Part shown: positions 1,097-7,371 of the stretch, one piece after another
How the letters are laid out: every line of letters starts with the position of its first letter
How positions within the stretch are numbered: position 1 is the first letter of the stretch
IMG/VR virus record: IMGVR_UViG_2617270998_000003
Span: 1-12,248 of that record
Direction: 5' to 3' (one strand)
Source: a virus
Taxonomy: Duplodnaviria > Heunggongvirae > Uroviricota > Caudoviricetes
DNA length: 12,248 nucleotides
Translations under genes and position numbers: made by a program
Notes under the pieces: model-generated
Database searches by the model: none
The model's input: only the letters and a program-made list of their open reading frames with translations
What the model was told of the DNA's origin: nothing

Positions 1097-1128
1097 AATA
1101 CGCCCCATGCAGGGGCGTATTATTTACT
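1097..1128. terminator. Bidirectional intrinsic terminator between the convergent Q and KAP NTPase genes
   Basis: Perfect 10-bp stem AATACGCCCC (1097-1106) / GGGGCGTATT (1112-1121) with 5-nt loop ATGCA; T/A-rich on both sides (TTAATAAAA upstream, TATTTACT downstream). Sits between stop codons at 1091-1093 and 1124-1126. Confidence 0.65.
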
Positions 1129-2455
1129 GAATGAATGACATTTGATTGATATATTTTATCAATAACTCTCTGGGTGTAGTGCTCCAAAAATTTAGGTGGT
1201 CATAATCAGTATAAACTTTGGTGAACCTTTTTAGTTCTTCATCACTTTTAGGAGCAAATCGCTCATTAAGAGTAATACTGTCTTTAATTATTCCAAAGAA
1301 TACAATTGATATTTTAGGGATTTTCGAACTCATCTCATAAGAATAAGGTATCTCTTTTATTTTAAGCAGGTCTGCTAAATAAGATATAGATTCAGCGGTA
1401 ATTTCGTGTTTTAGTTTTTCCTTGTCACCAAAGCAATGTATGAAGACAGCTACGACAAAGATCATATTTATAAAACGATCACTACTGTTGTCTTCATTGT
1501 CGTTTAACAGTTGAAAAATGTTAAGATTGCGTGAAAATGTTTGTGTTTCACGTAATGATAAGTTGGTTCGTTGAATTAAATCACGGATAAAATAACCTGA
1601 TAAGCTATTGATTTCATTTAATGATCTTGTTTTTTCTACAAGGTAATTCCAATATATAACAGAGGCTTTACATACGTCGTGACCATTTATCAAACATGTA
1701 TCTGGAAGCGTGATGGTATATTTTATAAACTTGTCAAGATACTTTTGTGAGTTAATACTATAACCATAAATATGATTTATCGATGCTCTTAATTGTTCTG
1801 TGTTTGTAACTAAAATAAAAAAGACATTATTGATGTCAAAAATGTGTTTTATTGTTTCAATGACATTTGTTGAAAAACTCGGCTTACATCGGTCTAATTC
1901 ATCAATTATAATTACTATCTTTTGATTTTCTGAAATACTTTCGATGCAAGATTTAAGTGAATTTATGTTTTTCTCTGATTCCATATGGTCTTCAAGCAAA
2001 TTTTCAATAGTCCCATCTATTGCTGCATTGCTTGCTTTCTTCATCGCATCTTGGAATTCTTCGGCAACTTCACTAGCCTCCTGTCGTAAAAACCAACCTG
2101 CACCAGCTTTTAGTACAGTTTTTAAACCAAATCGAATTGCAGGAAGAGATCTCTTAATGAAGTGTTGTTTTTCTTCCTCAGGCAAAATGCTGGCAATTGC
2201 AGAGGTTATGAGAAGTAATGGAGATTCTGCATGATCCCCTTTAAAGGCATCAATATAAACAACTTTAGATTCGGGTTCTTGCTCAATAATGAGATTTTTC
2301 AGTTTGATACTAAATTCTGATTTCCCTGTTCCCCATGCGCCATCTATTACCAGTGGTGAAATGTCTGCCTCTGGTTTTAGCAACTTGATGATATTTTCAG
2401 CGATGTTTCTTCGTTGGAACTCGTCACGTTCAGTGAACGATAGTGTATCTAACAT
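1124..2455 (-). CDS. KAP-family P-loop NTPase (PifA-like), 443 aa, in an AT-rich insertion
   Basis: Walker A GAWGTGKS near residue 40; Walker B with the KAP-type hhhhDELDR signature (IVIIIDELDRCKP); no evident transmembrane helices. Only minus-strand gene in the window; about 32% GC versus over 50% in flanking phage genes. Confidence 0.8.
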   Translation of the reverse strand: MLDTLSFTERDEFQRRNIAENIIKLLKPEADISPLVIDGAWGTGKSEFSIKLKNLIIEQEPESKVVYIDAFKGDHAESPLLLITSAIASILPEEEKQHFIKRSLPAIRFGLKTVLKAGAGWFLRQEASEVAEEFQDAMKKASNAAIDGTIENLLEDHMESEKNINSLKSCIESISENQKIVIIIDELDRCKPSFSTNVIETIKHIFDINNVFFILVTNTEQLRASINHIYGYSINSQKYLDKFIKYTITLPDTCLINGHDVCKASVIYWNYLVEKTRSLNEINSLSGYFIRDLIQRTNLSLRETQTFSRNLNIFQLLNDNEDNSSDRFINMIFVVAVFIHCFGDKEKLKHEITAESISYLADLLKIKEIPYSYEMSSKIPKISIVFFGIIKDSITLNERFAPKSDEELKRFTKVYTDYDHLNFWSTTPRELLIKYINQMSFIQ

Positions 2456-2752: not shown

Positions 2753-3079
2753 ATGCCTCATAACCCAAATACCTGGCTGGAGTTGTTCCAGAGCTGGTGG
2801 CGTGGAGATACGCCTCTTGGCGCAGTGATTATGTCGATTGTTATGGCTGGATTGCGCATTGCCTATTTTGGCGGTGGTGGTGGGGGGAAGCGAAAAACGC
2901 TCGAGATTTTGCTCTGTGGTGCTCTGACGCTGACTTTTGCATCCGCTCTTGAGTATGTCGGATGGCCTAAATCACTTTCTGTTGCCATTGGTGGCGGTGT
3001 TGGGCTGATTGGTGTCGATGCAATTCGTGGGGCTGCAATGAGAGTGATCGGTAACAAGTTTGGTGGCTCTAAGGAGTAA
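2753..3079 (+). CDS. S: Holin, lambda S-like (class I, three predicted TMDs)
   Basis: 108 aa with hydrophobic segments and a charged C-terminus; resembles lambda S in architecture; immediately precedes the endolysin with stop 3077-3079 and the R SD AAGGAG at 3071-3076. Confidence 0.8.
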   Translation: MPHNPNTWLELFQSWWRGDTPLGAVIMSIVMAGLRIAYFGGGGGGKRKTLEILLCGALTLTFASALEYVGWPKSLSVAIGGGVGLIGVDAIRGAAMRVIGNKFGGSKE

Positions 3080-3082
3080 TTT

Positions 3083-3559
3083 ATGCAGATACTAAATTCC
3101 CAGCGTAAAGCTTTCCTGGATATGGTGGCATGGTCAGAAGGAACGGATAACGGGCGACAACCGACACATAATCACGGTTATGACGTTATTGTCGGTGGTG
3201 AACTCTTCACTGATTACTCCGACCACCCTCGCAAACTTGTCACGCTAAACCCAAAACTTAAATCAACGGCTGCTGGACGCTACCAGATTCTTTCCCGATG
3301 GTGGGATGCTTACCGTAAACAGCTTGGTCTGAAAGACTTCTCCCCCAAAAGCCAGGACGCAGTGGCATTGCAGCAGATTAAAGAGCGTGGCGCTTTACCG
3401 ATGATTGATCGCGGTGATATCCGTCAGGCTATCGATCGTTGCAGCAATATCTGGGCTTCACTGCCGGGTGCAGGTTACGGTCAGTATGAACATAAAATCG
3501 GTGACCTGATTGCCCGATTTAAAGAGGCTGGTGGGGGGGGAAATGAAGTTGAGTTATAA
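3083..3559 (+). CDS. R: Endolysin, lambda R-type lytic transglycosylase
   Basis: Near-identity over long stretches to lambda R as I recall it (QRKAFLDMVAWSEGTDNGRQ..., HGYDVIVGGELFTDYSDHPRKLVTLNPKLKST, RYQILSRWWDAYRKQLGLKDFSPKSQDAVALQQIKERGALPMIDRGDIRQAIDRCSNIWASLPGAGYGQ). SD AAGGAG 3071-3076. Confidence 0.95.
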   Translation: MQILNSQRKAFLDMVAWSEGTDNGRQPTHNHGYDVIVGGELFTDYSDHPRKLVTLNPKLKSTAAGRYQILSRWWDAYRKQLGLKDFSPKSQDAVALQQIKERGALPMIDRGDIRQAIDRCSNIWASLPGAGYGQYEHKIGDLIARFKEAGGGGNEVEL

Positions 3560-4130: not shown

Positions 4131-4622
4131 ATGATGGATTGGAATATGTGGTCTGCTATTGGGGCTTGTGGTTCGGCTATCGCGTCTTTTGGGGCGTTGT
4201 GTTATGCCCGTAAGGCGTTAAACACATGGAATAGACAGGAGCAATTTAAAGTAAAGTTAGAGTTTAAGAGAGCTTTACTTCAGTTGGAGGATGCCTTTGA
4301 GGCAATGCCTGATAATTGGAATTCCGTACAGTATAGAATAGCCAAAACATTTGCGTCTCAGCGGGGCAACGATATATATAATGGAGTTGTTGAGGCTGAA
4401 AAACAGCTGTTTTATAAAAAACAAAACCTTAATTTAGCGTACGGACATTCCGTACAGGCATGGGTTTTGTGTGAAGAACTGTTTAAAGACAATACTATTC
4501 ATGATGAATGGAAAGCTTTCAGAATTAGTTATGATAATTACATTCTGAATGGTGGGAACAAAAATGATTATTTGCCAATGATAAAAAATATATATTCAAA
4601 AATTCCTGTGTTTAATGGTTGA
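4131..4622 (+). CDS. Hypothetical protein, 163 aa, N-terminal hydrophobic helix; AT-rich insertion
   Basis: SD GGGAGG (4121-4126) then ATG 4131 (second ATG at 4134). N-terminus WSAIGACGSAIASFGALCYA is TM-like. About 35% GC. No family recognised. Confidence 0.6.
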   Translation: MMDWNMWSAIGACGSAIASFGALCYARKALNTWNRQEQFKVKLEFKRALLQLEDAFEAMPDNWNSVQYRIAKTFASQRGNDIYNGVVEAEKQLFYKKQNLNLAYGHSVQAWVLCEELFKDNTIHDEWKAFRISYDNYILNGGNKNDYLPMIKNIYSKIPVFNG

Positions 4623-4634
4623 TTTCTATACGAA

Positions 4635-4659
4635 ATGGAAAATATGTTCCATCTTTTTT
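4635..4659 (+). terminator. Weak candidate terminator after the hypothetical gene
   Basis: 6-bp stem ATGGAA (4635-4640) / TTCCAT (4647-4652), loop AATATG, then CTTTTTT (4653-4659). Stem is AT-rich and may be too weak. Confidence 0.3.
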
Positions 4660-4670
4660 AGGGAAATTAT

Positions 4671-5021
4671 ATGCCCCCACGAACCCCAAAAGCCTGCCGC
4701 ATTCGAGGCTGCCGCAATACCACCACGGACCCGTCAGGCTACTGCGAAAGCCACAAAAGCGAAGGCTGGAAGCAATACAAGCCAGGACAATCCCGTCATC
4801 AGCGCGGCTACGGTTCGAAATGGGATGCTATCCGTGAACGTGTACTGAAGCGTGACAAGGGCCTGTGTCAGTTATGTCTGCGTGCCGGTGTGGTGCGTGA
4901 GGCGAAAACCGTTGACCACATCATCCCTAAAGCGCATGGCGGCACTGATGCCGACAGTAATCTGCAGAGTCTGTGCTGGCCCTGCCATAAGGCGAAGACG
5001 GCCCGTGAACGGTTAAAGTGA
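4671..5021 (+). CDS. HNH endonuclease, terminase-associated (HK97 gp74-like)
   Basis: Cys/His motifs CRIRGC...C, CQLC, DHIIPKAHGGTDADSNLQSLCWPCH; located directly upstream of terminase small subunit, as in HK97-like phages. Confidence 0.9.
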   Translation: MPPRTPKACRIRGCRNTTTDPSGYCESHKSEGWKQYKPGQSRHQRGYGSKWDAIRERVLKRDKGLCQLCLRAGVVREAKTVDHIIPKAHGGTDADSNLQSLCWPCHKAKTARERLK

Positions 5022-5047
5022 TAATAATTCTCAACTGTCTGAGGGGA

Positions 5048-5107
5048 GGGGCGGGTCAAATCTCTGTGACCTGACGTCTTCCGGACTGCCCGCCCCATCG
5101 TTTTTTT
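5048..5107. other. GC-rich dyad-symmetric element plus T7 run; candidate cos/packaging region or terminator
   Basis: GGGGCGGG (5048-5055) and its exact reverse complement CCCGCCCC (5089-5096) separated by 33 nt, followed by ATCGTTTTTTT (5097-5107); sits between the HNH gene and terS. Confidence 0.35.
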
Positions 5108-5146
5108 ATACCCGCGAAAAATGAAATTTAACCAGGAGTGCCGCAT

Positions 5147-5641
5147 ATGGCTGGAACGGTGGGGCGTTCCGGGCGTCGCCCCAAGCCAACGGCGCGCAAG
5201 GCGCTGGCCGGAAACCCCGGCAAGCGAGCCCTGAATAAAGATGAACCTGTTTTTACGCCCATCAAAGGTGTTGAGCCACCGGAGTGGTTCGCTGAAGAAG
5301 ATCTCCCTCTCGCTACGATCATGTGGCAACTGACAACTAAAGAACTCTGCGGTCAGGGCCTGCTATGCGTGACTGACCTGGCGGTACTTGAGCGGTGGTG
5401 CGTGGCCTATGAGTTCTGGCGACGTGCCGTGAAAAATATTGCCATACAGGGCAACACCATCACCGGTGCAATGGGCGGCAGGGTCAAAAATCCGGAGCTG
5501 ACCGCCAAAAAAGAACAGGAGTCCGAGATGAGCAGCACGGGTGCAATGCTCGGACTCGACCCCAGCAGCCGCCAGCGTCTGATTGGCCTGGCGGGGCAGA
5601 AGAAAGCCACTAACCCGTTTCTGAAAATCATCGAGTCATGA
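5147..5641 (+). CDS. terS: Terminase small subunit (P27/HK97 gp1 family)
   Basis: AGGAG (5134-5138), 8-nt spacer, ATG 5147; the track's 5138 start is a GTG within the SD. Basic N-terminus, conserved position upstream of TerL with ATGA overlap at 5638-5641. Confidence 0.85.
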
Positions 5642-7371
5642 GCAGGAAATCTTACCCCAACGTAAATGCTGCCAATCAGTATGCCCGTGATGTCGTGCGC
5701 GGAAAGATTGTGGCCTGCCAGTTTGTGATTCAGGCCTGCCAGCGCCATCTTGATGACCTGATGGCGGAAAAAAGTAAGTCGTTTCGTTACCGCTTCGACA
5801 AGGACCTGGCTGAACGGGCCGCGAAATTTATTCAGCTGTTGCCACACACCAAGGGGGAGTGGGCATTCAAACGGATGCCCATCACGCTGGAGCCGTGGCA
5901 GCTCTTTGTGATCTGCTGCGCGTTTGGCTGGGTCAATAAAGGCTCCCGGCTGCGCCGCTTCCGGGAGGTGTATACCGAAATCCCCCGTAAGAACGGCAAA
6001 TCGGCAATCTCTGCCGGTGTTGCCCTGTATTGTTTTGCCTGTGATAACGAGTTCGGCGCGGAAGTGTATTCCGGTGCCACGACGGAGAAACAGGCATGGG
6101 AAGTCTTTCGTCCGGCACGACTGATGTGTAAACGCACACCCATGCTGACGGAAGCGTTCGGGATTGAGGTTAACGCCTCAAACATGAACCGTCCGGAGGA
6201 TGGTGCGCGGTTTGAACCGCTGATCGGTAACCCCGGTGATGGTTCATCACCCCACTGTGCCGTGGTGGATGAATATCACGAGCACGCCACCGATGCGCTT
6301 TACACCACGATGCTTACCGGGATGGGGGCGCGACGTCAGCCCCTGATGTGGGCTATCACCACCGCCGGGTACAACATTGAGGGGCCGTGCTACGACAAAC
6401 GGCGGGAAGTCATCGAGATGCTCAACGGTTCGGTACCCAACGATGAACTGTTCGGGATCATCTATACCGTTGATGAAGGTGACGACTGGACCGACCCGCA
6501 GGTGCTGGAAAAAGCCAATCCAAATATTGGCGTGTCGGTTTATCGCGAATTTTTGTTAAGTCAGCAACAGCGTGCGAAAAATAACGCCCGTCTGGCAAAC
6601 GTCTTTAAAACAAAGCACCTCAATATCTGGGTGTCGGCGCGTTCGGCGTATTTCAACCTGGTGAGCTGGCAGAGCTGCGAGGATAAATCACTGACCCTTG
6701 AGCAGTTCGAGGGGCAGCCGTGCATTCTGGCCTTTGACCTGGCGCGTAAGCTGGATATGAACAGCATGGCGCGACTTTATACCCGCGAGATTGACGGTAA
6801 AACGCATTACTACAGTGTGGCCCCGCGTTTCTGGGTACCGTATGACACGGTGTACAGCGTCGAGAAAAATGAAGATAGACGGACAGCCGAACGCTTTCAG
6901 AAATGGGTGGAAATGGGCGTCCTGACCGTTACCGATGGTGCAGAGGTGGATTATCGCTACATCCTCGAGGAGGCCAAAGCGGCGAACAAAATCAGCCCGG
7001 TCAGTGAGTCACCCATCGACCCCTTCGGGGCGACCGGGCTGTCACATGACCTTGCTGATGAAGATCTGAATCCCGTCACTATCGTCCAGAACTTCGCCAA
7101 TATGTCCGATCCGATGAAAGAGCTGGAAGCAGCGATTGAATCGGGACGCTTTCATCATGACGGCAATCCCATCATGACCTGGTGTATCGGCAATGTGGTC
7201 GGCAAAAACATGCCAGGTAACGATGATTTAGTGAAGCCCGTCAAGGAGCAGGCGGAAAACAAAATCGATGGTGCGGTTGCACTGATTATGACGATCGGTC
7301 GGGCAATGCTCAAAGAACCTGACGATTTCCTCTCATCTCTTGATCCGGACGATGATCTCTTAATTCTATGA
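5638..7371 (+). CDS. terL: Terminase large subunit (HK97 gp2-like)
   Basis: 577 aa; size, position and acidic nuclease-like motifs consistent with TerL; gene order TerS, TerL, portal. Confidence 0.9.

Follow-up and report, generated by a model that had tools for sequence, protein, structure and literature searches.

The interval between the HNH endonuclease gene and terS of this prophage (positions 5022-5146) carries a GC-rich dyad followed by a run of seven thymines, which raises the question of whether it is the place where the phage genome is cut for packaging, a signal in the transcript, or DNA without a remaining function. Positions refer to the window, that is, to the whole stretch of 12,248 nt that was analysed. 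A first-pass annotation had proposed the interval, with its dyad, as a candidate cos site. Our analysis assigns positions 5043-5131, with a probability of roughly 90%, to a cos site belonging to a lambdoid prophage of the SfV/SfI/phiP27 type, whose DNA is packaged by an HK97-like terminase and an HNH protein. This cos element has already been described in SfV, SfI and phiP27 and belongs to the HK97 type; the earlier finding is correct but ordinary.

The features that had drawn attention to the interval are all present in the sequence. The two arms of the dyad are exact reverse complements at the positions given for them, their spacer is 33 nt long (5056-5088), and the right arm is followed by ATCG (5097-5100) and then by the seven thymines. 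Complementarity alone does not go beyond chance, as some 16 different inverted repeats that are exact over at least 8 bp, with spacers of 3-60 nt, occur in the window, and an exact inverted repeat of at least 8 bp arose in 5.5% of mononucleotide shuffles of 5022-5146.

The genes around the interval form a packaging and head module (Table 1). The HNH, TerS and TerL genes all lie on the + strand and flank the predicted cos site. The HNH protein shares 38% identity over 65 aa with HK97 gp74 (E 1e-10), both proteins containing PF01844, and TerL aligns with HK97 gp2 in BLASTP at 26% identity over 520 aa (E 2e-30) with the same Pfam domains. Further downstream, on the + strand, follow a portal protein (PF04860), a prohead protease (PF04586, Peptidase_S78) and an HK97-fold capsid protein (PF05065, Phage_capsid). 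The module is thus of the HK97 type in its TerL, its HNH protein and its capsid, protease and portal, and homology of TerS to gp1 was not found by sequence. The TerS start codon at 5147 agrees with the SfV annotation (CDS 68-562, where base 1 of the record is window position 5080) and is preceded by an AGGAG Shine-Dalgarno sequence at 5136-5140. In the stretch from the lysis genes to the HNH gene, two + strand ORFs (3083-3559, 158 aa; 4131-4622, 163 aa) gave no Pfam match at E <=1e-3. Farther upstream, the gene of a KAP-family P-loop NTPase lies in a low-GC island (28-39% GC versus about 50-57% elsewhere); past its 3' end, a hairpin at 1097-1121 has a perfect 10-bp stem (AATACGCCCC/GGGGCGTATT) and a 5-nt loop. 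With the early/Q region on one side and the lysis cassette on the other, this gene has the appearance of a moron that was acquired, or of a candidate gene for defence.

Table 1. Features of the predicted cos site and of neighbouring genes in the window.
Feature	Position	Strand	Remarks
KAP-family P-loop NTPase	1124-2455	-	PF07693, E 1e-70
Holin	2753-3079		PF05106
HNH endonuclease, packaging accessory nuclease (HK97 gp74 homologue)	4671-5021	+	PF01844, E 2.2e-16
Fur-box-like 7-1-7 palindrome, TGATAAT-A-ATTCTCA	5019-5033 (motif window 5014-5033)		Overlaps the HNH stop codon
G-tract/TCAAATC box (G-box), GGGGAGGGGCGGGTCAAATC	5043-5062		Holds the left arm; last-packaged side, cosQ-like position
Left arm, GGGGCGGG	5048-5055		Inside the G-box
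Variable spacer of fixed length	5063-5083		Low information content, almost no indels
Nick-site block, GAC/YGC	5084-5089		Spans the predicted bottom-strand nick
GAC 5' of the predicted bottom-strand nick (5086/5087)	5084-5086		Nick predicted from the SfI 10-nt gap
Predicted cosN, 10-nt cohesive end, TGCCCGCCCC	5087-5096	+	Identical to the SfI end; contains the right arm
Right arm, CCCGCCCC	5089-5096		Exact reverse complement of the left arm
T-run (T7)	5101-5107		Conserved A/T tract, +5 to +11, first-packaged side
Candidate TerS binding site, cosB-like, ATACCCGCGAAAAATGAAATTTAA	5108-5131		+12 to +35 from the nick
TerS, P27 family	5147-5641	+	PF05119, E 3.7e-20
TerL (ATPase and nuclease)	5638-7371	+	PF03354, PF20441

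The assignment as a cos site is carried first of all by phages that are nearly identical to the window in this region. In Megablast searches against phage records, positions 4650-5650 were 94-98% identical to the E. coli phages SKA5 and 720R4 and likewise to the Shigella phages SfV, SfI, SfII and SfIV, and the linear records of those Shigella phages break inside the element. Over 5022-5146, one base (5028) differs from SfV and ten differ from SfI; within 5041-5146, SfV is identical and SfI differs at 5097 only. Because of this identity to SfV, and with a single base separating it from SfI, we take the element to be the cos site of an SfV-like prophage. For SfI, run-off sequencing of the termini of virion DNA and comparison with the prophage had revealed a 10-nt gap, 5'-TGCCCGCCCC-3', from which cos packaging was concluded (PMC3636060), and SfI, SfII, SfIV and SfV are all reported to use cos and not headful packaging (PMC3636060, PMC3851460, PMC3772137). 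Since the SfI gap is the same sequence as window positions 5087-5096, the right arm of the dyad is the cohesive end itself. A run-off gap seen from both ends means recessed 5' ends, so the overhangs would be 3' overhangs; in HK97, the ends carry 10-nt 3' overhangs and the HNH protein gp74 stimulates cos cleavage by TerL (PMC9410871). Together, the SfI gap and HK97 suggest that the ends formed here are fixed and carry 3' overhangs of 10 nt. In near-identical or homologous phages, packaging of the cos type with fixed 10-nt cohesive ends at the 10-mer has been demonstrated, and the termini of the present prophage are predicted from these relatives.

The ends of other phage records point to the same base. 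The phiP27 record (NC_003356) contains a misc_feature 'cos-site' at 21806-21815, CGCCCGCCCC, which aligns to 5087-5096. The SfI record ends in ...GGACTGCCCGCCCC, of which the last ten bases are TGCCCGCCCC, and starts with GTCGTTTT / GTCGTTTTTTT, placing its break at window 5096/5097. That of the Edwardsiella phage EPP-1 ends in ...TGCCCGCCTC, which contains a homologous C-rich 10-mer; the Burkholderia phage phiE125 record ends in ...GACCGCCCGCTTC and starts with GTCGAATTTT, and the HK97 record ends in ...GACCGCCGCCAAA and starts with GTTTGAAT. All four records, SfI, EPP-1, phiE125 and HK97, end with the homologous 10-mer and begin at the homologous next base. The location of cos between the HNH gene and terS, as put forward in the first-pass annotation, is thus borne out by the SfI run-off cohesive end, by the phiP27 cos-site and by homologous record breaks, and the alignment with cos regions of the HK97 family, suggested there as a check, places the breaks of HK97, phiE125 and EPP-1 at the homologous position.

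Not every related record begins at that base. Base 1 of the SfV, SfIV and VIT_AJPSC records corresponds to window position 5080 and base 1 of the SfII record to 5022; related phage records start at three positions around cos, and only those of SfI, EPP-1, phiE125 and HK97 have the nick that is supported by experiment as their first base. In the SfII record stands the note 'cos sites spanning bp 59-125', which corresponds to window 5080-5146. The differing linearisation points of SfV, SfIV and SfII show that the choice of end was not uniform among depositors, and we counted this against the assignment.

The bases of the cos site that are under constraint were delineated by aligning the cos regions of 80 non-identical HNH-cos-TerS loci from bacterial assemblies, one genome per species. 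These loci stem from Enterobacterales, Pseudomonas, Burkholderia, Comamonas and Pandoraea, and their TerS proteins are 48-99% identical to that of the window. Their diversity came from a scan of GTDB genomes with a 4-sequence alignment; a scan of IMG/VR with TerS returned only copies of 98-99% identity, which are useless for covariation. By information content, the 80 loci yield a composite cos site of four conserved blocks with almost indel-free spacing. Within the G-box, GGG (5049-5051) and AA (5059-5060) show little or no variation. An HNH gene is found upstream of TerS on the same strand in 75 of the 80 loci, at a variable distance of 76-375 nt; because this distance varies and that of the G-box is fixed, the G-box belongs to the cos site and not to the end of the gene. 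Internal dyads are not enriched in the spacer at 5063-5083 (3.48 versus 3.38 in shuffled sequences, with 47 of 300 shuffles at or above the native value), and a small hairpin or palindrome that appeared there by eye in several loci was dropped for the same reason.

In the nick-site block, A5085 is conserved in 100% and C5086 and G5088 each in 96% of the 80 loci. Together with ATC at 5097-5099, the GAC at 5084-5086 forms a partial twofold frame, GAC-N10-RTC, and a GAC-N10/11-RTC frame is present in 48 of the 80 loci as compared with 1% of shuffles. The resulting twofold symmetry is weak, and it is what one would expect where two strands are nicked in a staggered manner. The sequence of the overhang itself varies among loci, with TGCCCGCCCC, CGCCGCCTCA, CGCGCCCTCA and others. 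Three loci from Phytopseudomonas/Pseudomonas (L145-L147) keep the G-box, the T-run and ACCCGCG at the usual total spacing; in these, GACCGCCCGAAC is shifted upstream by about 8 nt, an additional segment, GACGGGGGGAGCC, comes after it, and there is no HNH gene within 700 nt upstream. Their cos region may be a rearranged variant.

If the dyad had a function as a pair, the two copies of GGGGCGGG, one on the top strand at 5048-5055 and one on the bottom strand at 5089-5096, could be inverted sites of a symmetric protein, or form a cruciform, that joins the arms for cleavage. Both arms do lie within conserved blocks, and exact 8-mer arms recur in a subclade of SfV, SfI, phiP27 and ST64B, with 41 bp, or about four helical turns, from centre to centre. 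Across the loci, however, the arms are no more complementary in register than after shuffling, and slid registers (55-74% of cells paired) are equal or better. The same holds irrespective of register: the longest complementary run between the G-rich and the C-rich segment averages 5.06 in native pairs versus 4.97 in cross-locus pairs, and 690 of 5000 permutations reach at least the native value. The cos sites of HK97, Klebsiella, Xenorhabdus and Pseudomonas keep the G-box, yet their overhangs CGCCGCCAAA, CGCCGCCTCA and CGCGCCCTCA share only 4-5 bp with it, and the fold of the single-stranded DNA is unremarkable (z = -1.52). The G-rich composition of one block against the C-rich composition of the other explains the complementarity, and we consider paired action of the arms very improbable. 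The dyad arises as a side effect where a G-rich box faces a sticky end rich in C, and it represents neither a hairpin nor a cruciform nor a terminator. As an element in its own right, the GC-rich dyad of the first-pass annotation therefore has to be given up, because its right arm is the sticky end, its left arm is an independent G-box and the two do not covary.

We likewise attach very little weight to the explanation that the prophage is defective, or a headful (pac) packager, and that the element is a functionless relic. No exact match to the window was present in 5,426 complete E. coli genomes, the best reaching 96.2% identity over 91%, and the present sequence data give no indication that the prophage can be induced. 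Against decay stand the intact ORFs of HNH, TerS, TerL, portal, protease and capsid, all with full-length Pfam matches, as well as the identity of the cos DNA at 5041-5146 to that of the viable phage SfV; against headful packaging stands the use of cos by SfI, SfII, SfIV and SfV in the studies cited above.

Least probable of all is that the dyad and the T-run act in the transcript, as an intrinsic terminator or RNA hairpin that ends the lysis-HNH transcript before terS: although the 8-bp all-GC stem can form in RNA, inner pairs shorten its loop, the segment 5040-5112 folds with an MFE of -26.9 kcal/mol and a U7 run follows 4 nt past the stem, this fold is no better than those of shuffled sequences (z = -1.55, equalled by 17 of 200 shuffles; z = -0.14 for 5022-5146) and leaves no trace in the homologues. 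RNAalifold found 0 consensus pairs in the 80 homologues, the eight pairs of the dyad are formed in 67.8% of cells over the 80 loci versus 69.0% after shuffling, and the covariation score is 0.140 versus 0.152, with 477 of 500 shuffles reaching the native value. Although only 6 of the 80 loci possess the 8-bp dyad, conservation of the T-run (T5103-T5106) is 95-100% throughout, also in loci without the dyad. No Rfam family matched, and a terminator scan reported none, although its loop limit of 3-8 would have missed this dyad anyway. Moreover, nothing resembling a promoter was called in the DNA that leads from the element to terS, so that the head genes must be transcribed through it. The earlier remark that a 33-nt loop is unlike an intrinsic terminator agrees with this result, given the length of the loop, the 4-nt gap to the U-run and the lack of structure conservation. 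The T7 run that had been noted together with the dyad does exist at 5101-5107; it is a conserved A/T tract near the probable TerS site and not the tail of a terminator.

Immediately downstream of the T-run lies the part of the cos site that is probably bound by TerS. The small terminase of HK97 binds at +15 to +29, CTAACCCGATTTTTT, where a C:G pair at +21 and an A-tract are essential (PMC11331095). In the window, ACCCGCGAAA occupies +14 to +23, and this motif, followed by AA and TTnA, is found upstream of TerS in 80 of 80 loci, with CCCGCG and AAA invariant. That CGCGAAA does not vary is in part a consequence of the method, as CGCG[AT]AA[AT], present in all 80 loci, served as the anchor for extraction. 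Because of its position, the type of motif (ACCCG plus an A-tract) and its extreme conservation, 5108-5131 is predicted to be the TerS site, in line with the first-pass annotation, which had expected terminase-binding elements in this interval. The protein itself offers little comparison. BLASTP detected no similarity between TerS and HK97 gp1, a profile of 27 TerS sequences matched gp1 with an hhalign probability of 0.1% and matched no PDB chain, and a single-sequence AF2 model of TerS reached a pLDDT of 39.5 and was unusable. Since TerS shows no similarity to gp1, the transfer of the HK97 model depends on the position of the DNA site and the likeness of its motif.

The G-box extends beyond the phages with a P27-family TerS. 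It is located 31 nt upstream of the overhang in the 80 loci and in HK97, phiE125 and F1055, whichever TerS family is present; in HK97, TCAAATC starts 31 nt before the overhang, at the same distance as in the window (the box lies at about 575-598 of locus L018, at the record end). In the Salmonella phage F1055 (L016, 560-620), the HNH gene, the G-box and the cohesive-end region are about 85% identical to the window, and right after the nick the sequence switches to a divergent TerS gene with a variant downstream motif, TTTTTACGCGCCAAAAA. The position of this switch implies a mosaic junction at cos, and in this single case a change in the type of TerS seems to go along with a change in the downstream motif. 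Because HK97 and F1055 keep the box despite an unrelated or divergent TerS, TerL, the HNH protein or the portal would be a likelier reader of the G-box than TerS. The G-box would most likely be a cosQ-like element that serves termination or the positioning of the nuclease. The papers on HK97 packaging consulted here map the downstream TerS site only and do not mention the upstream box.

Just upstream of the G-box lies a Fur-box-like palindrome, in which 14 of 19 positions agree with the consensus for Fur, GATAATGATAATCATTATC. A Fur-like score of at least 13 of 19 was obtained for 19 of 77 cos regions and for 1 of 348 background windows, and four regions score 16 of 19. Comparable palindromes are found at the same place in phiP27, HK97 and in Enterobacter, Rosenbergiella, Kosakonia and Pseudomonas loci, and the palindrome is absent from SfI, sal3 and F1055; it would thus be an optional accessory element of the cos region. 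Our literature searches retrieved no description of an upstream element or of a Fur box at HK97-type cos sites. As a tentative extension, which we hold to be possible but rather less than an even bet, the G-box may be the third functional element of HK97-type cos sites, a cosQ-like termination signal acting through TerL, HNH or portal, and the Fur-box-like palindrome just upstream of it in many lineages may recruit a host factor.

By analogy to HK97, the cos site in the window could work as follows. On concatemeric DNA, TerS would dock at ACCCGCG and the A-tract, about 12-35 bp downstream of the cut. TerL and the HNH protein encoded upstream would then nick the top strand at 5096/5097 and the bottom strand at 5086/5087, and these staggered nicks would leave 10-nt 3' cohesive ends, with TGCCCGCCCC as the right end. 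The sequence of this end is experimental in SfI, and the 3' polarity is suggested by the SfI run-off gap and HK97. Packaging would run rightwards from 5097, with terS entering first, until the next cos site is reached from the HNH side; the motor would pass the G-box, stall on TerS-bound DNA and cut. Stalling of the motor on TerS-bound DNA at the next cos site, followed by cleavage, has been proposed for HK97 (PMC9410871, PMC10359639, PMC11331095).

For the window itself, these results matter little beyond fixing where the genome of a common SfV-like prophage ends and hence how its linear map should be drawn. They confirm that reading the sequence alone can place cos in phages with an HNH protein and a terminase. 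A modestly useful by-product is a consensus of the HK97-type cos site at base resolution across Enterobacterales, Pseudomonas and Burkholderia, which marks the G-box, GAC/YGC, the T-run and ACCCGCGAAA as constrained and could predict the termini of prophages and of satellites that hijack such terminases. It also draws attention to the upstream box, which the in vitro packaging system available for HK97 would allow to be examined directly.

Among known systems, the cos sites of SfV, SfI, SfII and SfIV are closest to that of the window, with the same 10-nt end TGCCCGCCCC and 94-98% nucleotide identity in HNH, TerS and TerL; SfV and SfI differ by flanking polymorphisms only (at 5028 for SfV and in 5022-5040 for SfI). 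PhiP27 shares the G-box GGGGAGGGGCGGGTCAAATC, the exact 8-bp dyad, the ACCCGCGAAA motif and a P27-family TerS, whereas its DNA is about 71% identical overall, its TerS is about 47-50% identical and the first base of its overhang is C instead of T. Lambda is more distant. Its cos overhangs are 12-nt 5' overhangs, and it differs from the window in lacking an HNH protein, in its TerS (gpNu1), which is unrelated, and in an R-element/IHF architecture, with no sequence similarity. The TerS of the window belongs to PF05119 (P27 family) and not to Nu1, and the SfI overhang is 10 nt long with an implied 3' polarity, which sets the site apart from the lambda type. What lambda does share, with respect to the direction of packaging, is the tripartite order cosQ-cosN-cosB: an upstream termination element, the nick site and a downstream TerS element next to terS (PMC6739421). 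The G-box would take the place of cosQ in this layout by analogy.

HK97 differs in its overhang, CGCCGCCAAA, in a TerS without detectable sequence similarity, in an HNH gene that ends about 320 bp upstream of cos (65 bp in the window), and in the placement of ACCCG, whose start at +14 (5110) in the window is 4 bp nearer the nick than its start in HK97 (+18); the A-tract of HK97 is a T7, and in the window CG plus A5 follows. The joined ends of the HK97 record nevertheless read ...GGGCAGGGGGGGGGATCAAATC-N24-CGCCGCCAAA/GTTTGAATTTAACGCTAACCCGATTTTTTTAG..., where the slash marks the junction. As in the window, a G-tract with ATCAAATC starts exactly 31 nt ahead of the overhang, which is rich in C, 10 nt long and has GAC in front of it. 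Downstream, a stretch rich in A and T and then ACCCG with an A-tract follow, the ATG of TerS comes about 50 nt after the nick, and TerL and the HNH protein are homologous.
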